Sequence record: NC_106514.1
Reading direction: 5' to 3' (one strand)
Source of the DNA: Escherichia phage vB_EcoS_ESCO40
DNA: 64,000 nt
Under the pieces are notes generated by a model. That model saw only the letters and a program-made list of their open reading frames with translations. It made no database searches and had not been told where the DNA came from. The translations under genes and the position numbers were made by a program. This document shows positions 2,619 through 30,513 of this stretch, piece by piece (the first letter of the stretch is position 1; each line of letters begins with the position of its first letter).

Positions 2619-3118
2619 ATTTATATTGAATTGAGAGACATTAGTAAAAATTGGTTTTACTAATTTTTCTTGTTTACAATCCGCGATACGGAACAGTTAG
2701 GCTGCCCCATTAAGGGTTGTTTTAACTGTTACGTGTTAGTTTTTAAACAAATAGTTAATAGAATACTTAGCGATCTGCGTCCCATAGGAACCCTGGTAAG
2801 GCCTCGAAGCAACCTAGTATGAGGTGGTTGTGAAGTGAGATGGGAGGAGTGAAAAACTACCGAGACGTGATTCTGTAAGTTATATTGCATCTAGTATGAG
2901 CTAGTATATGAAGCATTAGGTGAGCAAATCTGGCTTAGCGGCCATCCTCAAGGATTTGTGCGGTATAATGAGGCAGCAGCGCAGCGTGAAAGTGGAAGTT
3001 GCCACCCCACTTCAGTATTTGCGATTAATTTGTTGAGAAATTGACAGTAACAGTTGTTCTATTCTTTCTGAATAGTCCTAAAGAAAACTTATTTCATTTC
3101 CAACACAGGAGTATTGTT

Positions 3119-5908
3119 GTGTTTTCAATCCTACAAGGTCATGCAGGATTTCATCGCGATTTAGCCACAGGCAATTGGCGAGAAGTTAAAGCAGAAGATT
3201 ATCTTTTTGCTAAAAGATTTTCCTCAAAGCATCCTGAAGGTAAACCAGCTTCAATGCCCTTCAAGTTTGATGTAATTGACGAAGTTGATCCTCAAACCCT
3301 AGTAGAAATGCTCCCTCTTATGAGACGTTTAACGTCTGACCCTCATATCGTTGCGGTACGAGGTCGATGTCTTGCACCTAAAAATAATGTGCGGCGTAAG
3401 AAGGGCAACTTTAATGTATCTAATCCAAGTCATATAATCGCAATGGATGTGGATGGTATTGTAGATACAGGAGGTTGTAACAAGTTTGATCTTGTTGGCG
3501 TGGCTCGACATATTATTAGGATGTTAAATAGTATTAGTGAGGATATGTTTCCTCTTGATGCAGGGTTTATCGCTCATGCATCGTCTTCGGCTGGACTAAA
3601 ACCAGGTATCCGAATGCACTTAATACTAGAATCTAATGTTAAAGTTACACAGGGTCAGATCAAGTTCTTATTTACATCTATCAACGAAAGTAGTAGACAA
3701 AAGTATGGCTTTGATATTGCCGACTTAGCTTATTACTCTTCCGTACAGCTCCACTATTTCGCAGATCCTTTATTTATTGATGGTATAGTCGATCCGTTTA
3801 AAGCGGAGGGTGCTTCACGTCTGGTATTTGTTAAAGGCTCAAAAGTAAATTTACCTAATAATCTAGTTGACTATGAAACAACTAGAGGAGAGTTTAAAGA
3901 GGAATTCTACTCTTTACTCGATCAAATTAAAGGTAAAAAAGCTGCCTCTGATAAAGTAGAGGAAACTATCAGTGAGCTAGAAGAGGCTGATGATGGGGTA
4001 TACTTACGTATTATTCCAAAGCTATATCACCGAGCGTTAGAGGATGGGGTAGATTTTGGTTGGCTAGAAAAAGAAATCCGCCCAGCTTTATCAGAATATA
4101 TTGCAACTAAAGATAATAGCCGTAATATTCAGGATTATTTCAATAACGGACGGAAACAGGCATTAAAAGCCTTTGTGAATAACTCTAAGCGTGAGATCCC
4201 TGAAGTATTAAAAGGTATCCCCCTTAAAAAGCTAGAAACTAATTCACTAGAGACTGACAACTTCTTGAAATTAAATACTGTACCACCAGAAGGCTATATG
4301 ACTTTTGTAAAAGCAAGTCTAGGCACAGGTAAAACCACGGCGGTTGTGCGTTGGTTAGATTCAGGGGTTATTAAAGGTAATTTCTTAGCAATTACCAATA
4401 CTAGAGCACTGGTATCTTCAAATGCTAAGAAATTTAGTGCAGGACAATATGATAAGTCTGTAGATATGCTTAATTTTAAGCGTGGTGCTATTGACCGTAT
4501 GTCCACAACTATTCACTCTTTGCATAAATTCAAGAGTTTTATTGGTCAAATTGACGCAATCTTTATCGATGAATGTGATGCAGTAATGAATGACCTATTA
4601 TTCGCTCCGGTTGTTAAGCAACGTCGCGAGTGTATTCAGGTTCTTCGTGATATTCTTGCAACTGCAAAAATAATTATATTATCTGATGGGGATATTAGTG
4701 CAGAAACAATTGAAGCATATGGTTCTTTGATTGAGTTCGATAAACCAGTTGCATTTTACAATCACCACCGTAAAATGCTGTCAAAAGCTCATGCTTATGA
4801 GTTCCCTGATGAATCCAGTATTTGGGTTGCACTTCAGACTTCTCTAGAGATGGGTGAGAAATCTATTCTAGTATCTGATTGTGGCCCGGATGAGCTGAAT
4901 GAGAAAGGTATGGCACTGCGTCGTAATACGGGTGCGTTAGTTAAGGAAATCCATTCAAACTCTACCTCAGATGTGGATATTCGACGTATTCTGGATTACA
5001 CAACTAATGAACTAATTGATCAACAAATTGATTGCTTATTATGTAGTCCATCCGTAACGAGTGGTGTTGACTTTAACTATTTTGATAACGTATTTGTTAT
5101 TACTAGAACTAGTAATCAAGCGCCAAACATGCGTTTTCAAGCAATCAGGCGCGACCGTGGTGCTCAGAATATCTATTATTTTATTGATAAATCCACTAGT
5201 GGGTTCTCTGCTGGTTCTGAACAATATAATATTGATGAAGGTTGGCTGGAGTTAGCACAGCAGTTATATGCGCGTCGCAGGGAGCTAGAATCTAGGAACT
5301 ATACTAGTACTTTACGTTATTACTTGCTTGATCAAGGTGCAACTATTGATATTTTCAGCGAAAGCTGGGGAACTATTGAAGGTGCTGGTAAAGAGTACAC
5401 AGAAGAGCGAATCAAAGCTATTCTGCATTCAACTCCAGATTATTGTGCTCCACGTCATGCGGATGCGTATGAAGCTAAACTACTTCTTGTTCGCTATTAT
5501 CATCTTGAGTCTATTAAAGATGTAACAGTTGAGCATGTTGAACAATATATCAAAGATAAGCCGAATGATCGAGCTGCATTCTTCCATAAGATGCACGAGA
5601 TGTTCTGGGAAGATATTAAGAAGTGTTCAAATGTGACCATTAAACCATTCATAGAAGCTCTGAAAGGTAAGAAGAAGGACTTCTTCCTTAAAACAGGTCA
5701 GAGTGCTAACCCAAAATATGCTAGAATGTATCTTGGTATGATGGGTATTGGTAAAGATATGAACACGGAGAATATCGTAGACTGGTACAGAACCTATTGT
5801 AAAATCGAGTGTATGCCAATTCCTTATAAGTTCATGACTGACGAGGAAAAACATATGCACGATGAAGCAATGTCAGAGCTAGGTGCTAGAAATGACAGTG
5901 AAGAATAA
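3119..5908 (+). CDS. SF2 helicase-domain protein, putative replication initiator / origin-binding-like
   Basis: Walker A GTGKTT and DExD-like IFIDECD in central region; ORF open from 3041 (TTG); GTG at 3119 follows AGGAG by 7 nt; start uncertain. Confidence 0.6.
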   Translation: MFSILQGHAGFHRDLATGNWREVKAEDYLFAKRFSSKHPEGKPASMPFKFDVIDEVDPQTLVEMLPLMRRLTSDPHIVAVRGRCLAPKNNVRRKKGNFNVSNPSHIIAMDVDGIVDTGGCNKFDLVGVARHIIRMLNSISEDMFPLDAGFIAHASSSAGLKPGIRMHLILESNVKVTQGQIKFLFTSINESSRQKYGFDIADLAYYSSVQLHYFADPLFIDGIVDPFKAEGASRLVFVKGSKVNLPNNLVDYETTRGEFKEEFYSLLDQIKGKKAASDKVEETISELEEADDGVYLRIIPKLYHRALEDGVDFGWLEKEIRPALSEYIATKDNSRNIQDYFNNGRKQALKAFVNNSKREIPEVLKGIPLKKLETNSLETDNFLKLNTVPPEGYMTFVKASLGTGKTTAVVRWLDSGVIKGNFLAITNTRALVSSNAKKFSAGQYDKSVDMLNFKRGAIDRMSTTIHSLHKFKSFIGQIDAIFIDECDAVMNDLLFAPVVKQRRECIQVLRDILATAKIIILSDGDISAETIEAYGSLIEFDKPVAFYNHHRKMLSKAHAYEFPDESSIWVALQTSLEMGEKSILVSDCGPDELNEKGMALRRNTGALVKEIHSNSTSDVDIRRILDYTTNELIDQQIDCLLCSPSVTSGVDFNYFDNVFVITRTSNQAPNMRFQAIRRDRGAQNIYYFIDKSTSGFSAGSEQYNIDEGWLELAQQLYARRRELESRNYTSTLRYYLLDQGATIDIFSESWGTIEGAGKEYTEERIKAILHSTPDYCAPRHADAYEAKLLLVRYYHLESIKDVTVEHVEQYIKDKPNDRAAFFHKMHEMFWEDIKKCSNVTIKPFIEALKGKKKDFFLKTGQSANPKYARMYLGMMGIGKDMNTENIVDWYRTYCKIECMPIPYKFMTDEEKHMHDEAMSELGARNDSEE

Positions 5909-6125
5909 AAAATGGGAAACAAGGAAGTTTCCAGTAAAAGAACGTAAGGTTCCTGTTTATGATACTTCGGAAAAGCTATGTAGGGTGGTACCACACAGAT
6001 TAGCTGGTATCCCTAACATATCCGAGTGGTTACTTAAACAACGGAGGACTAGCGTATCCCTCCGCATAGGGTTTGAGTTAGATAAAGTATATGCTGAACT
6101 TTCTTCTTTGCTCAAAGAATCATAA
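5883..6125 (+). CDS. hypothetical protein (80 aa)
   Basis: ORF overlapping the end of the upstream gene; no motif recognised. Confidence 0.35.
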   Translation: MLEMTVKNKKWETRKFPVKERKVPVYDTSEKLCRVVPHRLAGIPNISEWLLKQRRTSVSLRIGFELDKVYAELSSLLKES

Positions 6126-6133
6126 AAAATTAT

Positions 6134-6162
6134 TTGCTTTCAGGAAAAATTTTCTGTATAAT
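6134..6162 (+). promoter_or_regulatory. T5-type early promoter (P2)
   Basis: TTGCTT-17 bp-TATAAT then AGATTCATAAATTTGAGAGAGGAG. Confidence 0.75.
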
Positions 6163-6193
6163 AGATTCATAAATTTGAGAGAGGAGTTTAAAT

Positions 6194-6898
6194 ATGGCTG
6201 GTTCTCGCAGAAAGAAACATATCCATGAAATCCCGGATGAAGTCTTTAAAAAAGTTATAGAGCATCTGGAGAACGGTGGTACTAAGAAAGCAGCATGTGA
6301 AATGCTCGGCGTATCATCCAATCCAACTATGGAAAGGATGATTGAAGAATGGCAAGACCGCCAGATTCAAGTTGCCGAAATGAAGAAAAAGAAACGTGGT
6401 ACACTCATTGAAGGTATTGAGTTGGCCAACGTTATTGAGCAGTATCTATCTGGTGACTCCTTTGAGGAGATTGCCGATCGTAATTATCGTTCTGTAGCAA
6501 TGGTTAAATCTGTTCTGGAACGATATGGTGCTCTACTTCGTTTGAACGATATTGTAGATCCATTGAATCCACCAATTATTCCTGATGATGCTGTAGCAGA
6601 AGAATTTGAGGTAGGCGAGCTTGTTTGGGTTCCTGGATACCAGTGTATCGGTGAAATCAAAAAGGCAATGGATAATCCTGTTGGTTGCTACCGTGTATGG
6701 CTTCTATCAGAAGGCAAACAACAGAACGTTCATTATATGAATTATGAATTAGCTTCTGTAAAGCATTTGGAAAAGTTAGGGGTTGACGTAAAATCTCTGG
6801 GGTACAAGTGGACTCGTGAAGAAGTTATTACGTTGATTAACGAAGCTGTTAAGGCTGCCCTGAAACTTGATAAAGAAAAAGGAAAACGCCGTGAGTAG
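6194..6898 (+). CDS. putative DNA-binding protein
   Basis: GAGAGGAG RBS 7 nt before ATG; N-terminal helix-turn-helix-like segment GGTKKAACEMLGVS. Confidence 0.6.
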   Translation: MAGSRRKKHIHEIPDEVFKKVIEHLENGGTKKAACEMLGVSSNPTMERMIEEWQDRQIQVAEMKKKKRGTLIEGIELANVIEQYLSGDSFEEIADRNYRSVAMVKSVLERYGALLRLNDIVDPLNPPIIPDDAVAEEFEVGELVWVPGYQCIGEIKKAMDNPVGCYRVWLLSEGKQQNVHYMNYELASVKHLEKLGVDVKSLGYKWTREEVITLINEAVKAALKLDKEKGKRRE

Positions 6899-7142
6899 AC
6901 TAACTGATTTACTTAAAGATGGGGAAGTAAAAACACTATATCGCAGAAGCTGGGGTAACGATAATAACGGCTTAGTGTTACTAACTTTAGATGCTGACTC
7001 GGATGTAGCTACCCAGCATACCTGGGTAGCCGGTAACTATCCATATAGCGAGGTCGTTTCATTAACAGTATGCGAAGCTATTGCGGACGATTGGGAGGTT
7101 GCCAGCATTGATGATATGCTCGCTGTTGGCCTGGTGGAGTAA
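6891..7142 (+). CDS. hypothetical protein
   Basis: GTG start preceded by AAGGAAAA, overlapping upstream stop (GTGAGTAG); the ORF track extends to 6867. Confidence 0.4.
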   Translation: MSRLTDLLKDGEVKTLYRRSWGNDNNGLVLLTLDADSDVATQHTWVAGNYPYSEVVSLTVCEAIADDWEVASIDDMLAVGLVE

Positions 7143-7159
7143 CTACTTAAAAATTTCAG

Positions 7160-7188
7160 TTGCTTAATCCTATAATTCTTGATATAAT
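7160..7188 (+). promoter_or_regulatory. T5-type early promoter (P3)
   Basis: TTGCTT-17 bp-TATAAT. Confidence 0.7.
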
Positions 7189-7245
7189 ATTCTCATAGTT
7201 TGAAAGAACTATTCTGTTTAATTCTTAATTAAGGAAATATAAAAT

Positions 7246-7656
7246 ATGACTACTCCAACTCAGTGGACTGATGAACTGTTCGAAAAAATGTCTTCCGAAT
7301 ACGTTGCTCGTATGGAGCAATTCCCAGAGGATGAACGTCCGAGTGTTAGTATGGAAATTGTTAGTGAAATTGCCCAAGAAAATGGTGTAACTCCGAACGG
7401 TTTTCGTATGAAGCTGACTAAAGCAGGTGTGTATATCAAGAAAGCTGCTGGTTCTGCTTCTAAATCTAGCGCATCTACTGGAGAAAAAGCTTCTGGTGGT
7501 TCTCGTACCTCCAAAGCCCAAGCTCATGCCGACCTGCGTTCAGCATTCTCTGATGCTGGCTTAGCACCAGATTTTCTGGATGATGCAATTATCGACAAAC
7601 TGACCGGTAAAGCGGCCGCTCATCTGGCAGAAGCAATCCGAGCTATCACTAAGTAA
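7246..7656 (+). CDS. hypothetical abundant early protein
   Basis: AAGGA RBS; codon usage dominated by host-preferred codons (CTG, CGT, GGT); Ala/Ser-rich. Confidence 0.55.
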   Translation: MTTPTQWTDELFEKMSSEYVARMEQFPEDERPSVSMEIVSEIAQENGVTPNGFRMKLTKAGVYIKKAAGSASKSSASTGEKASGGSRTSKAQAHADLRSAFSDAGLAPDFLDDAIIDKLTGKAAAHLAEAIRAITK

Positions 7657-7693
7657 TATTTAGATAAATCCACCAACAAAAGGAACTACAGTT

Positions 7694-7990
7694 ATGACCA
7701 AAGCTGAAATTATCGCACAGTGTGAAAAATTTGGTGAGTTTTATCTTCATTACGAGAAACTTCGTCAGAAAGGAACCACGTACCTTCAGGGTACAATGGA
7801 ATTTGATCCGGCCCAAGATAAATATCTGGCTGAGCGTATTAAACGTGAACGTATTCGTAAAGCGAAAGATGATGAAATCCTTGTCTTCTCTCGTACTAAT
7901 GATAGCTTCCGTTTTATTCCTGTCGAGAAAGTTCGTCGTGTGACTAGCCTCCAATCAGAGTTAGATCGTGCTTCTCCAGTAGGCCGATAA
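7694..7990 (+). CDS. hypothetical protein (98 aa)
   Basis: AAGGA RBS; followed by a strong intrinsic terminator. Confidence 0.5.
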   Translation: MTKAEIIAQCEKFGEFYLHYEKLRQKGTTYLQGTMEFDPAQDKYLAERIKRERIRKAKDDEILVFSRTNDSFRFIPVEKVRRVTSLQSELDRASPVGR

Positions 7991-8000
7991 GAAAACAATT

Positions 8001-8022
8001 AGCCCCTATATGGGGCTTTTTG
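8001..8022 (+). terminator. intrinsic terminator
   Basis: AGCCCC-TATAT-GGGGCT hairpin followed by TTTTT. Confidence 0.7.
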
Positions 8023-8040
8023 TGTATTTGGGATATGTAA

Positions 8041-8349
8041 ATGAGCGAACAGGTAAATCAAAACTATGAAGGACACGTTGATGACCAGTCCATCATACTT
8101 TGGGAGAAGGAGGGGGAACAAGTAAGATTAACAGTATCTGAATTTCGTGGGAATCTATACATGGGTATTCGTTACTGGCTTCTTGATATTAATGATGAAT
8201 GGTTTCCAACGAAATCTGGCTTCTCTTTTCCTTACACCCTAGAAACAACATCACAGCTTTTCTATGCGTTTACACAGATTCTTAGTGAATCTGAGGTTTT
8301 ACATGAAGTACAGAAACGAGCTGAAGAACTCAAAGCCAAGAATGCCTAG
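8041..8349 (+). CDS. PC4/YdbC-like ssDNA-binding protein
   Basis: LTVSEFRGNLYMGIRYWL...WFPTKSGFSFP resembles the PC4-like fold signature; bracketed by two terminators. Confidence 0.45.
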   Translation: MSEQVNQNYEGHVDDQSIILWEKEGEQVRLTVSEFRGNLYMGIRYWLLDINDEWFPTKSGFSFPYTLETTSQLFYAFTQILSESEVLHEVQKRAEELKAKNA

Positions 8350-25307: not shown

Positions 25308-25338
25308 AAACCCCAGTGGACAAAATCCGCTGGGGTTT
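25308..25338. terminator. bidirectional terminator between convergent early and late units
   Basis: AAACCCCAG/CTGGGGTTT stem with 13-nt loop; T-rich flank on both strands. Confidence 0.6.
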
Positions 25339-25686
25339 CTTATTATGATATTAGCTTATTAGCTAATATTTTTAGTTTGTCCCTATTTGAGTGGGTTATT
25401 TAGATGTTTTTAGTGCCACTATCCCTGCCCCCAAATCCTACGTTTGTTTACTTAGATACTAGACAAATCCTAGTAGACCACAAGGGTTGGGGCCTACTAA
25501 AGGCCTATCTCTATCCTACCAGTATCACGAGTGTCCTTTTAAGCTCCATTGCTATATTTGGTATATTAAGATGCTATACCCTCCCGTTGGCAATAACACC
25601 GAAGTTGGTAGGACTATGTACGCACAACATCAGAATAGGGTAGAAAATTCTACATCTGCAGAATTTTTAGAGGAATCCAGGTGGCG

Positions 25687-27366
25687 TTACTTCTGTACCA
25701 TTAGATTGACCAGTTCTCTGAGTTCAGCCAATTCAGCTTTCATCTCAGCCAACTCCCTATCCTGCTCCTGTACCACTGCCACGATATCTGCTAGTATCGC
25801 ACGATCGTTCAGGTTGAGCATTCCAGACATGCTACCGGAAAACGCGTAAATCTCATCCGCTTCTTTAGCTTCCTGAGCAACAAATCCGCGATCTTTGCGC
25901 CCATCTGATAGCCATTCAAACTCACGCGCAACAAGGCGGTTAATACGGTCACGTGGGGTGTTGCCTTCCGTATTGGTGGTGTCTGTGATCTTGTCTTTGA
26001 GGCGACGATCTGAACCGCCAGGTTGGATAAGGCCTAAATTAGTGTCGATACATGAATTTTCCCATTTAAACGCCCAATATTTATTACCTCCTACGGCTCT
26101 ATTAATATTTAGTTGTACGGCTCTAAATTGTGTATTACCTTCACGTATGCCACCAAATTCCCACCTATCGTCATACCAATGACCACGAATAATATTTACA
26201 TAGGTATTACCTTCGCTACTAGGAGTAACATTGAAAAACTCGATGGCATTGGGTTCTCCTGTATTACCTACGAAAAAACCACCTCTCCCTGGTACTGTTA
26301 CCACACCAATTGAGTTAACAGACATTACCTCCCGCAACGTACCTTCTTGTCCTTTTACTTCTAGTGCAGAATAAAAATCTGTCCCAAAAAGAATCTTGGT
26401 ACGCAATTGTGAGACATATGCTTCCGCGCCAGCAATATTGTATACAGATCGCACAGCACCGCCATAGGCCATTACGCCGTTAGATGGACTTGTCGCATCA
26501 CCATTAATAACACTCCACGAGGTATTCGCAGCCACGAACCCCCCAGAAGCACGGATTACCCAGACGCCGACAAAGTTTCGTGTAAGGATTTCGTCCCTTG
26601 ATGCCCCGTAGATAGGGCTTGAGCGTGAGGCGTCAAAATTTAATGTATTATAGCGCCCAGCTACTGCAATATTTCCTGTACTTGGAATTGCATCCCCATC
26701 CCCATTAGGAAAAATCGCATTATCAACAAAGAAAGCACCGCTAGCAGCAGAACCAAATACCTGAGCGTAACTACCCCCTGAGTAACTAGGAACAGCAGCA
26801 GTAATATTAGGCGCAGCGGATTCAAATAGCTGGCCATTTGCACCACTATTCCCACCATCACCACGACCGTAGAGAGCACGTATTGATCCTTGTTGCACAC
26901 CGTTCCTATCTGGCACACGGAAAGTAGTTGTACCGTCACCCAATGAGTATCTGCCACGCTGAAATTTATCTGCTAACCAAACTGAATCATCTATAGCCCC
27001 AACCATTTGTGCATACGCCCAAAGTTCAGGCCAGTCAGCCCTATTAAGAAGCTGTCCGTCAGAAACGACTTCGTATGGTTGAATATACGCACGACTATCT
27101 CGAAGGTGGAAATCACCAACACCGTAATTCATAACACCATTCATAGTGGGACCGACTGTACCGGTGTTAATCTTATTCTCTACCCAACGTTTAGTTGCGG
27201 CATCATAGTCCCCAACAGGATCCCCCGCAAGAGGGGTGGACCCAATAGGACGCACATTTAACCATGCTGCTGCACGGTCTGCAAGATCGGATAAATTGTT
27301 GTTTTTATCCATCTTTTCGTCTTTAAGTTTTGTAATATCCTGGGGGATATTAGTATAAGTAGTCAT
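25687..27366 (-). CDS. L-shaped tail fibre protein, distal part, with C-terminal intramolecular chaperone domain
   Basis: Gly/Ser/Asn-rich fibre-like sequence; C-terminal GGSDRRLKDKI...AELAELRELV resembles the autocleaving S74-type chaperone domain. Confidence 0.7.
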   Translation of the reverse strand: MTTYTNIPQDITKLKDEKMDKNNNLSDLADRAAAWLNVRPIGSTPLAGDPVGDYDAATKRWVENKINTGTVGPTMNGVMNYGVGDFHLRDSRAYIQPYEVVSDGQLLNRADWPELWAYAQMVGAIDDSVWLADKFQRGRYSLGDGTTTFRVPDRNGVQQGSIRALYGRGDGGNSGANGQLFESAAPNITAAVPSYSGGSYAQVFGSAASGAFFVDNAIFPNGDGDAIPSTGNIAVAGRYNTLNFDASRSSPIYGASRDEILTRNFVGVWVIRASGGFVAANTSWSVINGDATSPSNGVMAYGGAVRSVYNIAGAEAYVSQLRTKILFGTDFYSALEVKGQEGTLREVMSVNSIGVVTVPGRGGFFVGNTGEPNAIEFFNVTPSSEGNTYVNIIRGHWYDDRWEFGGIREGNTQFRAVQLNINRAVGGNKYWAFKWENSCIDTNLGLIQPGGSDRRLKDKITDTTNTEGNTPRDRINRLVAREFEWLSDGRKDRGFVAQEAKEADEIYAFSGSMSGMLNLNDRAILADIVAVVQEQDRELAEMKAELAELRELVNLMVQK

Positions 27367-27376
27367 TGATCACCTC

Positions 27377-27643
27377 TTATGCCCATTTGCGTACATCAGG
27401 ATTCTTAATAATGAATTGTTCGATGTCTGACAAGTCTATATTATCTCCTACTATCCTTATATTTATGTAATAACCTTCTTTACCAATAATAGCAGGGGTT
27501 TTACTTTTAGGGTCGTCTACCACAGGGATAAAACCAATTTCATCTATAAACACGTTACCGTAGTTTGTCTTAAGCCACCCACTATCAACGACAACATCCA
27601 GATAATGTTTTTCATCCTTGAATTGTAAATTAATATCTTTCAC
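27377..27643 (-). CDS. hypothetical protein (88 aa) between fibre genes
   Basis: Tightly packed between the two fibre ORFs. Confidence 0.45.
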   Translation of the reverse strand: MKDINLQFKDEKHYLDVVVDSGWLKTNYGNVFIDEIGFIPVVDDPKSKTPAIIGKEGYYINIRIVGDNIDLSDIEQFIIKNPDVRKWA

Positions 27644-30091
27644 TTAAACTTTCTCCCGCATTTGACTATCTGTTAATACTCTATTCCATATTCTAAGGTT
27701 ACGAATATGACCATACAATTTAGTTGAATCTGAAAGTCTACCGCCTATTTCTACTAGTGCGTCCGCGTCCGTTCCTTTCCATGTAAAACCGTGTGAGGTC
27801 TCACCCCTATTACCATTAACAAACGAGGTGACCTCTACATCGCCACGGAGAATAAAACCAAATACATGTGGAGAAAATTGTTTTTCAAATGAATAACCTC
27901 TGGACAGTATAGTTGATCCATCCTCAGTTACCACATACGTGTAAGGTGTAACGGAGGTTCTGTCAAATTCCGCAACAAATGCTTTTCCTCTTACGAAGTA
28001 GTGGTTGTTATCCACTATCATTGGGTATATATTATCTAAGTGAAAGCTATCCCAGTTAACACTTACCTCAGCAAGTAATGAAATATTTGTCCCGAAGAAA
28101 TTATTCCTTGCTGGTATAGTAACATAGTCTAGAGCCCTTGTTGCAGGCGTGCTTCCCGTAATAATGAAGGAGGATGCACAAAAACCCTTTTCAAATTGCG
28201 GGTTACAAAATGATATTTCATCCCCAACTTGTAAAGGCTGACCATCCACCCGACAATAATTCACCGAACCAATAGAATTTCCGCCAATCTCCACAAATTT
28301 ACACATAGCTTCAACTTTCAACCATCCGTTGTCTTCTCTATATATTCTATGTGCTATAGTCCCGCTCCCTTCTACTACAGAAGAAATTTCGCCGGTTCCG
28401 CAACTTATGACAGATCTAGCGCCGAGAATAAGTCCTCCGTCCTCACCTACTAAATAAAATTGAGGGGTAATATAGATATCCTGGCCTGCTTTTACTCGTA
28501 TGGATAAAGAGACATATTCATTTTTCTGACAGTTAATCGCATTTGCTGTTTCACAATAAAATAGGTTTGGCGTATCACCTTGACCATTTTGGTTTACAGT
28601 TGCCGTTGTGTATGTAAAACCATACTTATCAACACCATATGTAACATCGATACGATGTCTATCCGTATTTAAAGAAGCCGGGTCGTTACTGAAAGTAATG
28701 TGATTTGTCCTCTGCCCTTCAATCAAGAGTCCTTGCTTTTCAAATCTAGGCTCATCGATATTGGCAATACAAAACTCACCGTGTTTGTTTATATATGTTG
28801 CATTTGATGCGCGGGAGAAACTGACAACCTTATCCGAGGGCATTGTAATAACATCTTCACCAACTGTTATTTTCTTGTATCCTGGCGAGTAACCTGCAAG
28901 CATATCAAGCGAGTCATTAAAGGGAATCCATACGTCAGGGAATGGTTGAAGATCCGGAGCCCTGTTAGCTGCAATTTCCGCACGGTCTGCTTCTGCTTTT
29001 GCACGGTCTGCCTCTACTTTAGAGCTATTTGCACTACCAGCAGCATTGCTAGCTTGTTGCCCGGCCTCAACAGCACTATTACCTGCTTGTGTAGCAGAAG
29101 CAGCAGCTTGGTTTTTTAAAGTTGTTGTCTCAGATACCGCGCTATCCTTAATACCTTGTGTATCTGTTTTTAATTGCTCAACCTCTGCTTTTAAAGCTGT
29201 TGTCTCTGTTACAGCACTATTTTTAATGGCCTGGGTATCAGATTTTAACTGTTCGACATCCGCTTTTAAAGCTGTTGTCTCTGTTATAGCACTATTTTTA
29301 ATGGCCTGGGTATCAGATTTTAATTGTTCAACATCTGATTTAAGTCCTTGAATAGTAGTTACAGATTGGTTGGCGGAGGCTGCAGACCCTGCCGCATTAG
29401 TTTCGCTAGCCTTAGCTTTTGTTTCCGAGGTTTTTGCATTGGTTTCAGAGATTTTTGCCGCAGATGCCGATGCAGCAGCTTGCCCAGAAAATATTTCCGC
29501 CTCATTCCTAAAACCGCTAGAATCAGCTGCTGATTGAGCTGCATTAGTCTCACTGACCTTTGCATTACCCTCGCTAAGTTTTGCATCAGTAGCTGATTGA
29601 GCTGCATTAGTCTCACTTGCCTTTGCATTAGTCTCACTAATTTTTGCAGCAGCAGCTGATGCGTCAGCATTAGTTTCACTAGTCTTCGCATTAGTTTCAC
29701 TAGTCTTCGCATTAGTTTCACTAGTCTTCGCATTAGTCTCGGATATTTTAGCTGCGGCAGCGGACTCTGCAGACTTATTGGCTGACGCTGCGGACTGAGT
29801 AGCAGAGGTAGCAGACTGAGTAGCAGAAGCTTCTGAAGCTCCAGCAGAAATAGCAGCTTCCTGTTCAGAGTTCTTAGCATTAAGCTCTGAAGTCTTAGCT
29901 GCTATTTCAGAATCTTTTGCAGCCGCAGCAGACTTAGCAGCGGCCTCTATAGAGGATACTAACTCATTAGCAGTAATAGAGCTAATAGAATTTCCAAGAG
30001 TTACTGTGTATCTAGGAAATTTACTAGCAGTAGCTTTAGTATCATCAATATTTAATATTTGTTGTACAATAATCTTAGTAGTTATTGCCAT
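27644..30091 (-). CDS. L-shaped tail fibre protein, proximal part (repeat-rich shaft)
   Basis: N-terminal MAITTKII... then SETNAK heptad repeats and 24-aa DVEQLKSDTQAIKNSA repeats. Confidence 0.7.
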   Translation of the reverse strand: MAITTKIIVQQILNIDDTKATASKFPRYTVTLGNSISSITANELVSSIEAAAKSAAAAKDSEIAAKTSELNAKNSEQEAAISAGASEASATQSATSATQSAASANKSAESAAAAKISETNAKTSETNAKTSETNAKTSETNADASAAAAKISETNAKASETNAAQSATDAKLSEGNAKVSETNAAQSAADSSGFRNEAEIFSGQAAASASAAKISETNAKTSETKAKASETNAAGSAASANQSVTTIQGLKSDVEQLKSDTQAIKNSAITETTALKADVEQLKSDTQAIKNSAVTETTALKAEVEQLKTDTQGIKDSAVSETTTLKNQAAASATQAGNSAVEAGQQASNAAGSANSSKVEADRAKAEADRAEIAANRAPDLQPFPDVWIPFNDSLDMLAGYSPGYKKITVGEDVITMPSDKVVSFSRASNATYINKHGEFCIANIDEPRFEKQGLLIEGQRTNHITFSNDPASLNTDRHRIDVTYGVDKYGFTYTTATVNQNGQGDTPNLFYCETANAINCQKNEYVSLSIRVKAGQDIYITPQFYLVGEDGGLILGARSVISCGTGEISSVVEGSGTIAHRIYREDNGWLKVEAMCKFVEIGGNSIGSVNYCRVDGQPLQVGDEISFCNPQFEKGFCASSFIITGSTPATRALDYVTIPARNNFFGTNISLLAEVSVNWDSFHLDNIYPMIVDNNHYFVRGKAFVAEFDRTSVTPYTYVVTEDGSTILSRGYSFEKQFSPHVFGFILRGDVEVTSFVNGNRGETSHGFTWKGTDADALVEIGGRLSDSTKLYGHIRNLRIWNRVLTDSQMREKV
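29115..29335. repeat. 72-bp tandem repeat (about 3 copies) inside the fibre gene
   Basis: Near-identical units CTTTTAAAGCTGTTGTCTCTGTTA...CAGATTTTAA read directly. Confidence 0.8.
29667..29742. repeat. 21-bp tandem repeat (3.5 copies) inside the fibre gene
   Basis: GCATTAGTTTCACTAGTCTTC repeated head to tail, encoding TSETNAK heptads. Confidence 0.85.
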
Positions 30092-30513
30092 TATCTAGTT
30101 ACCCCATCACTGATAAATACTTTACCCTCCATTATACGAAAAGAGCTAATAGCTGATCCTATGACATCTCGTGTCATAATTATATCATAGTATCCTGCAA
30201 AACGTTGGCGAGGGTTATACTTATCTCTCTCTTTGGTAGCTTTTTCACCAATATTATCTACCGCCTCTACAGGTAAACTTATAGCTATGGCACCCTGAGC
30301 AGCATCAATAATTTTAGTAGTAAAAGATGCCAAAGTTTCCGCATTCTCATCAAGCCCGGCCTTTATAGTACCCCTTAGGGAATACCCTGTTAAGTTAACA
30401 GGGGTATTTGTAGGTGGATAAGTACTATCATCAACATCTAAGAATTGCATCATTAGACCATAAGGTACTTTCTCATCTATCACTAAGTCTATAACTCTAT
30501 TTTCAGTACTCAT
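30091..30513 (-). CDS. tail collar / fibre-attachment protein (p132-like)
   Basis: 140-aa ORF between the pb4-like and fibre genes; assignment by position and size only. Confidence 0.4.

Follow-up and report, generated by a model that had tools for sequence, protein, structure and literature searches.

How does a T5-like phage assemble its L-shaped lateral tail fibre when two fibre genes, separated by a small gene, stand in the place of one? This modest but clean question, namely how the proteins LtfA, p88 and LtfB fit together, is raised by positions 25687-30091 of the 64,000-nucleotide stretch of Escherichia phage vB_EcoS_ESCO40 (NC_106514.1) that was analysed here and is called the window. 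The region is the lateral tail-fibre operon of this Tequintavirus and is of the AKFV33 type (ltpA-orf136-ltpB), so called after the phage for which it was first reported. As the first-pass annotation had described, open reading frames (ORFs) of 815, 88 and 559 amino acids (aa) lie there on the minus strand, downstream of ltfC. The first, ltfA (ESCO40_00133; 27644-30091), encodes the proximal fibre protein, which is identical to UPW39087.1 and matches the tail protein family phrog_1419 (E = 8e-223). The second (ESCO40_00132; 27377-27643), with a GTG start, encodes the uncharacterised small alpha/beta protein p88, and the third, ltfB (ESCO40_00131; 25687-27366), encodes the distal fibre protein with an intramolecular chaperone, identical to UPW39085.1. 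That two fibre genes occupy the position of a single one in T5 was also borne out, the T5 gene encoding 1396 aa. We consider it likely that the whole is best explained as an AKFV33-type operon in which an anchored LtfA would carry a separate LtfB ending in a Peptidase_S74 (S74) domain, with the distal parts forming a mobile cassette.

In a sequence look-up, each of the three ORF products agreed in full with a protein of ESCO40; the records name them, in order, 'tail fiber protein', 'hypothetical protein ESCO40_00132' and 'putative tail fiber protein'. Indeed, the ESCO40 genome paper lists the tail-fibre genes ESCO40_00133 and ESCO40_00131 with ESCO40_00132, of unknown function, between them, and presents the fibre without domain analysis, repeat analysis or an assembly model (GenBank OM386660; Microbiol Spectr 2023, PMC10269720). 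Annotations of these three genes also exist for NBEco002 (89% DNA identity across the whole region), AKFV33, phiAPCEc03, FFH_1, SelmaRatti, SP15, WP85, VogelGryff, JenP1 and BRET. For AKFV33, a two-product fibre of ORF137 (ltpA) and ORF135 (ltpB) was proposed, and ORF137 was identified in virions by mass spectrometry (PLoS One 2012, PMC3326045). The likeness to ESCO40 is close: AKFV33 carries the same genes in the same order, ltpA (ORF137)-ORF136-ltpB (ORF135), with homologous products; 85% of the region aligns at about 91% DNA identity, and the proteins p88 and LtfB are 95% and 89% identical, respectively. It differs in a LtfA that is 31 aa shorter and in LtfB residues 191-360, which are only 76% identical. 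The locus is thus real, rightly located and already published, and since the layout of two fibre genes with a small gene is in the literature, its arrangement is ordinary.

We then examined the domain architecture of LtfA. The two ORFs upstream of ltfA show domains of pb4, the T5 straight-fibre protein, and a match to the Pfam family LtfC, which corresponds to the T5-type gene position. The latter gene, ltfC (30091-30513, minus strand), lies directly upstream of ltfA, overlaps its start by 1 nt and encodes the collar protein by which the lateral fibre is joined to the tail (PF23926, E = 8e-15; so annotated in relatives). Residues 1-60 of LtfA (29912-30091) form the N-terminal anchor of T5/DT57C type that binds the LtfC ring, as assigned by homology to T5 Ltf, DT57C LtfA and PDB 8hqz. 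The identity amounts to 82% with DT57C LtfA over residues 1-44 and to 67% with T5 Ltf over the first ~80 residues, and about the first 211-225 residues match the solved DT57C chain 8hqz_d, the part of LtfA that enters the LtfC ring in the DT57C structure (Nat Commun 2023, PMC10713586).

The 815-aa product had been described as a shaft protein, which held for its repeat-rich shaft but not for the last ~435 residues (381-815; 27647-28951), a globular, lectin-like beta-sandwich module. Within it, the NCBIfam family GTA_spike_fiber matches residues 456-653 above the family cut-off, and Pfam Laminin_G_3 matches residues 742-810 at 26.8 bits, just below the 27.6-bit cut-off. An AlphaFold2 (AF2) monomer model of residues 375-815 reached a predicted local distance difference test (pLDDT) score of 56 and was good only for about residues 475-635. 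With this model, Foldseek retrieved tandem LamG/galectin-type sandwiches at low TM-scores (0.2-0.3), as well as two Pseudomonas phage fibre or baseplate chains, also at low TM-scores. Since the model is poor and the fold matches are weak, we assign the module as a lectin-like tandem beta-sandwich with moderate confidence. A Pfam scan of the 815-aa LtfA gave no match to Peptidase_S74. A search with the C-terminal module yielded 2463 homologues, of which the majority are side tail fibres of E. coli prophages with an N-terminus of lambda Stf type (PF08400); in the 120 best of them, S74 was likewise missing from the chain.

The S74 domain is instead found at the end of LtfB, so that the claim of a 559-aa protein with a C-terminal intramolecular chaperone domain was upheld. 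Residues 452-559 (25690-26013) were assigned to the Peptidase_S74 intramolecular chaperone, with PF13884 matching residues 452-503 at 31 bits against a cut-off of 22, and cleavage is predicted at Ser452. The Ser-Lys motif S452-DRRL-K457 (SDRRLK) aligns with S1264-DARL-K of T5, where the mature T5 peptide is annotated to end, and the calculated mass of 60.8 kDa for full-length LtfB would fall to ~48.5 kDa in the mature protein if it is self-cleaved. The body of LtfB is related to both DT57C fibre proteins: residues 16-358 match DT57C LtfA 528-870 (E = 5e-123), and in BLASTP the whole protein aligns with DT57C LtfA 508-1072 at 45% identity and residues 30-359 with DT57C LtfB 206-531 at 60% identity. 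Sequence comparison detected no part of LtfB that resembles the T5 Ltf anchor or the N-terminus of DT57C LtfB.

The N-terminal residues 1-16 of LtfB (27319-27366) bear the motif M-T-x-T-x-IP-x-DIT-x-LK. In an alignment of N-termini from the cassettes of T5-like phages, Seuratvirus, Nonagvirus and lambdoid prophages, this motif was common to the third gene product of most cassettes and weakly recognisable in a second prophage type, while the rest was variable; we regard it as a candidate docking peptide. Among seven relatives, residues 1-190 of LtfB are 86-100% identical, whereas residues 191-451 are only 33-97% identical, which places a hypervariable region at about residues 190-450, and the S74 domain occurs as two alleles. 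The hypervariable stretch is likely the receptor-binding part, an assignment in keeping with the fused DT571/2-ABF protein, in which the LtfB-derived part (aa 288-767) determines receptor specificity (DT57C/DT571/2 literature).

These architectures were compared with those of T5 and DT57C. T5 pb1 (Ltf, 1396 aa) shares the genomic position, the N-terminal ~80 residues and an S74 domain with the same Ser-Lys motif. However, in T5 a single polypeptide runs from the anchor to S74, whereas in ESCO40 the anchor and shaft lie on the 815-aa chain and the S74-matured tip on the 559-aa chain, separated by a lectin-like module of foreign origin and by a small gene. In DT57C, both LtfA and LtfB end in an S74 domain, and the joint is proposed to form between residues 223-471 of LtfA, which resemble gp14 of phiEco32, and the N-terminus of LtfB, which resembles gp15 (Viruses 2016, PMC4728585); its genome record has no gene between ltfA and ltfB. 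When DT57C LtfB 1-205 was used as a query, BLASTP and tblastn found no match in the window, and DT57C LtfA 227-507 retrieved only a weak collar-like motif, inside LtfB, with no counterpart in LtfA.

The two systems therefore resemble each other in some parts and not in others. Both have the LtfC collar, the N-terminal LtfA anchor and two fibre proteins, of which the second has no anchor to the virion; the LtfB proteins are homologous in their distal body, and the copy number of LtfA repeats changes in both. In contrast, ESCO40 lacks the gp14- and gp15-like docking segments, its LtfA ends in lectin-like domains and not in S74, it has the additional 88-aa gene, and its 559-aa protein is as much a counterpart of the distal DT57C LtfA as of DT57C LtfB. 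The suggested match to the DT57C LtfA/LtfB arrangement thus stands for the gene count and the shared anchor, but fails for the S74 domain on LtfA, the docking segments and the intervening gene. Likewise, the alignment with T5 pb1 and DT57C, which had been proposed as a check, recovered the common N-terminal anchor but no counterpart of the branch-forming parts. As judged from the sequences, the DT57C analogy holds loosely for function, with two fibre proteins of which the second would be carried by the first, and not for family membership. The literature treats AKFV33-type phages as sharing the DT57C design, and the parts disagree with this.

Comparison beyond the T5-like phages indicated that the distal part of LtfA, the p88 gene and LtfB constitute, on sequence evidence, a mobile cassette. 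It occurs behind a lambda-Stf-type anchor (PF08400) in phages of the genera Nonagvirus and Seuratvirus as well as in E. coli prophages. In the Nonagvirus BRET, the products BRET_23, BRET_24 and BRET_25 are 75%, 80% and 53% identical to LtfA 214-815, p88 and LtfB, respectively, only the N-terminal anchor being different, and the DNA is 81% identical to that of ESCO40 over 2.8 kb. The order of a fibre gene, a ~90-aa gene and an S74 protein gene was also found in JenP1 and in Seuratvirus VogelGryff, and lambdoid E. coli prophages have the same gene order after gpJ and Lom, their small protein being indexed in 957 collection blocks. Thus, the Queuovirinae (BRET, JenP1 and VogelGryff) and the lambdoid prophages share the order and the C-terminal module, but have an Stf-type N-terminus and not the T5 anchor. 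The third proteins of the cassettes range from 234 to 582 aa. In the papers on BASEL and RBPseg, no specific account of this fibre type was found.

Three further observations were made on these cassettes. In the second prophage type (four loci, at about 2900-6400), the cassette, with a 92-aa gene, is located between the capsid genes and the tail-tube gene and not at the end of the tail module; given this position and the NCBIfam name 'head spike fiber domain', one may ask whether these prophages carry the fibre on the head or neck. In lambdoid prophages with the cassette (four loci, 6400-8300), a reverse transcriptase gene (RVT_1) and a SLATT_5 gene follow just after it on the opposite strand, which looks like a retron-type defence island. 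Finally, the LtfB counterpart of VogelGryff (4980-6146 of the examined locus) is annotated as 'putative lateral tail fiber chaperone'. This label was probably taken from the Pfam name of S74; since the product has the appearance of a fibre or tip protein that contains an intramolecular chaperone, the label is likely misleading.

We next turned to the small protein between the two fibre proteins. p88, a protein of 10.1 kDa, belongs to phrog_1361, a family of unknown function, and its profile search collected 221 homologue clusters, none of them named and none with a Pfam family. A phmmer search against 1.8 billion representatives gave five matches and no annotated relative, and an exact look-up of contigs encoding p88 returned none on record. 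The AF2 model is confident (pLDDT 87) and consists of a strand, a helix, a short helix and two long strands; a fold search with it yielded no informative match, and comparison with lambda Tfa / Caudo_TAP, T4 gp38 and gp57A revealed no likeness in sequence or fold. The gene lies directly downstream of a fibre gene whose product is without an intramolecular chaperone. A helper gene right behind a chaperone-less fibre gene is the usual pattern, as in lambda stf-tfa and T4 37-38. Since LtfA is such a protein and p88 occupies the usual helper position, a chaperone of the LtfA end is suggested on positional grounds. Furthermore, a p88 homologue follows a lectin-ended fibre without a subsequent S74 gene in mEp460_4F5 and, more distantly, in the Vequintavirus FFH2. 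Most likely, p88 is a chaperone or an adaptor of the fibre. When the identity of p88 was compared with that of its neighbours in the seven relatives, no pattern emerged as to which partner it tracks, because recombination breakpoints flank the small gene.

The junction of ltfA and the p88 gene deserves separate mention. In both ESCO40 and AKFV33, the ltfA TAA and the p88 GTG (27640-27650 in the window) are adjacent and in frame. The AKFV33 ORF137 virion band was listed at 95.8 kDa, compared with a calculated 83.1 kDa for the protein and 93.2 kDa for a read-through fusion with ORF136 (PMC3326045). We considered read-through of the ltfA TAA into the p88 ORF and judged it unlikely; it could not be general, because the two genes overlap out of frame in other lineages. 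The 95.8-kDa band is probably a gel anomaly.

The shaft of LtfA was then analysed for its repeats. Residues 61-242 (29366-29911) form an Ala/Ser/Thr-rich zone that is presumed to be the shaft, and the SETNAK-type heptads noticed in the first-pass annotation indeed continue in a single unbroken 7-residue register from residue 61 to ~242, with TRF periods of 21 and 63. The perfect 21-bp tandem was also found as claimed, in 3.38 copies (71 bp; 29667-29737), while the longest perfect tandem among 100 codon shuffles of ltfA was 18 bp. On the other hand, the repeat described as a perfect 72-bp, 24-aa unit has in fact a period of 75 bp (25 aa) and is present as three imperfect copies, DVEQLKSDTQAIKNSA(I/V)TETTALKA, at residues 253-327 (29111-29335). 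Copies 1 and 2 are identical at 71 of 75 positions, and copy 3 agrees with the others at 55-56 of 75.

Comparison of relatives supports a change of shaft length at these repeats, since SelmaRatti, AKFV33, SP15 and WP85 all differ in the repeat zone. The LtfA of SelmaRatti (537 aa) equals that of ESCO40 minus an in-frame 834 bp (278 aa, residues 51-328), so that the heptad zone is absent; a GCTGCT microhomology marks the junction, and the DNA identity is 99% on one flank and 97% on the other. The 31-aa difference of AKFV33 LtfA is located inside the heptads, and FFH_1 LtfA is 1 aa longer. In the deposited records of SP15 and WP85, ltfA is broken, by a split or a truncation, inside the repeat zone: in SP15 (3651-6192 of the examined locus) it appears as two overlapping ORFs of 203 and 651 aa, and in WP85 (3477-6066 of the examined locus) the annotated ltfA coding sequence is without the N-terminal anchor. 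These breaks are either assembly errors in the repeats or genuine frameshifts. A laboratory mutant of DT571/2 likewise gained one more copy of a 19-aa repeat (DT57C/DT571/2 literature). The earlier suggestion that the repeats are a substrate for fibre-length change is thus supported by the comparison, with the in-frame loss in SelmaRatti and the difference in AKFV33. The repeats are located in the shaft, far from the variable, likely receptor-binding part of LtfB.

Taken together, these results suggest the following assembly. In LtfA, the anchor for the LtfC collar is followed by the repeat-rich shaft and then by a lectin-like end that is without an intramolecular chaperone. LtfB, being without a virion anchor of its own, would most likely hang on the LtfA C-terminal module via its conserved N-terminal peptide; it would trimerise with the aid of S74, which would then cleave itself at Ser452. 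p88 would most likely serve as an assembly chaperone of LtfA, or as an adaptor at the LtfA-LtfB joint. The resulting fibre would be forked or composed of two parts and could offer as many as two sites for glycan binding, and recombination or slippage among the Ala/Ser-rich repeats would alter the length of its shaft. Attachment of LtfB to the distal part of LtfA is the simplest reading, which we infer because the composition of the distal unit is kept while the anchor is exchanged, and because LtfB is without an anchor. Several points weigh against this assembly. Among the fibre proteins, virion proteomics of AKFV33 identified only ORF137 (PMC3326045), and the contact of LtfA, p88 and LtfB is deduced from gene linkage only. 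The lectin fold depends on the GTA_spike_fiber match, the near-threshold Laminin_G_3 match and weak Foldseek hits with a model of pLDDT 56; p88 resembles no known fibre chaperone in the sequence and fold searches; and the two phages without a third gene, mEp460_4F5 and FFH2, indicate that the third protein is not obligatory.

Other explanations were weighed against this one. Sequencing errors in the repeats could have split one fibre gene into three ORFs, a possibility to which the broken ltfA records of SP15 and WP85 and the common frame of the ltfA stop and the p88 GTG might point. The ESCO40 ORF boundaries, however, lie outside the repeats, and every gene of the three is equipped with a start codon and a Shine-Dalgarno sequence of its own: the p88 GTG comes immediately after the ltfA TAA stop and is preceded by GGGAG 9 nt upstream, and in ltfB a AAGAGGTG Shine-Dalgarno sequence and then ATG follow the p88 stop codon. 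Moreover, four phage lineages, with at least ten independent genomes, have identical boundaries, and in other lineages the first two genes overlap out of frame. Given these start signals and the recurrence of the same three genes in relatives, the three-ORF split is genuine; its conservation refutes the artefact, to which we give practically no credence. A strict DT57C-type branched fibre, in which LtfB would sit on the middle of LtfA via gp14- and gp15-like segments and LtfA would have its own S74-matured tip, is improbable. The two fibre genes after ltfC, the common LtfA N-terminus and the grouping of AKFV33 with the two-ltf phages in the DT57C paper (PMC4728585) are what such a fibre would predict, but it is contradicted at the sequence level by the failure of the docking-segment queries to find a counterpart, by the LtfA without S74 and by the small gene that DT57C does not have.

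It is still less probable, indeed very unlikely, that LtfB is a free helper and not a part of the fibre. Such a role is suggested by the VogelGryff annotation and by the Pfam name of S74, 'chaperone of endosialidase'. However, S74 acts within its own chain, as shown for T5 Ltf (literature quoted in PMC4728585), ~340 residues of LtfB are homologous to the fibre body of both DT57C LtfA and DT57C LtfB, and the DT571/2-ABF fusion places receptor specificity in the LtfB-derived part. More serious is the alternative that p88 is not a transient chaperone but a structural adaptor that stays in the virion as part of the LtfA-LtfB joint, comparable to the knee proteins of the T4 long fibre. All three-gene cassettes seen have its gene in the middle, flanked by the fibre genes, the cassette moves as a unit, the fold is compact and confidently predicted, and the SelmaRatti record labels the p88 counterpart a tail fibre protein. 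On the other side, p88-type genes in mEp460_4F5 and FFH2 stand behind a fibre module without a third gene, and since no S74 gene is present there, p88 cannot be merely an adaptor between LtfA and LtfB; proteomic detection is also not on record for AKFV33 virions (PMC3326045). We therefore hold the retained adaptor to be possible but rather unlikely, and give a modest preference, by analogy with known helper genes, to a chaperone that assembles the LtfA end module.

Downstream of the operon, a hairpin between A and T runs (25308-25338) sits between the convergent dUTPase-side genes and the fibre operon and is a probable bidirectional terminator; AKFV33 has a terminator annotated on both strands at the equivalent place. 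The ~350 bp between the hairpin and the end of ltfB (25339-25686) contain no convincing gene, only plus-strand ORFs of 79 and 120 aa, and WP85 annotates a hypothetical protein at the equivalent place.

Lateral fibres carry T5-like phages through the O-antigen layer and thereby set the host range on wild strains, which is relevant to phage therapy and biocontrol, where AKFV33 is directed at E. coli O157 and ESCO40 at avian pathogenic E. coli. p88 is a clear candidate for a missing assembly factor. A broader proposal, which we advance tentatively and at slightly less than even expectation, is that the ~90-aa proteins of phrog_1361 constitute a new class of assembly factor or joint protein for lectin-ended fibres, within a portable two-stage fibre unlike the DT57C branch, made up of the lectin-ended fibre, the small protein and an S74 fibre whose N-terminal peptide is conserved. 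If this is true, such a fibre would spread among T5-like phages, Queuovirinae and lambdoid prophages by an anchor swap only. The cassette view thus suggests a practical handle, in that the distal unit may be transferable between phage families by exchange of the anchor alone.

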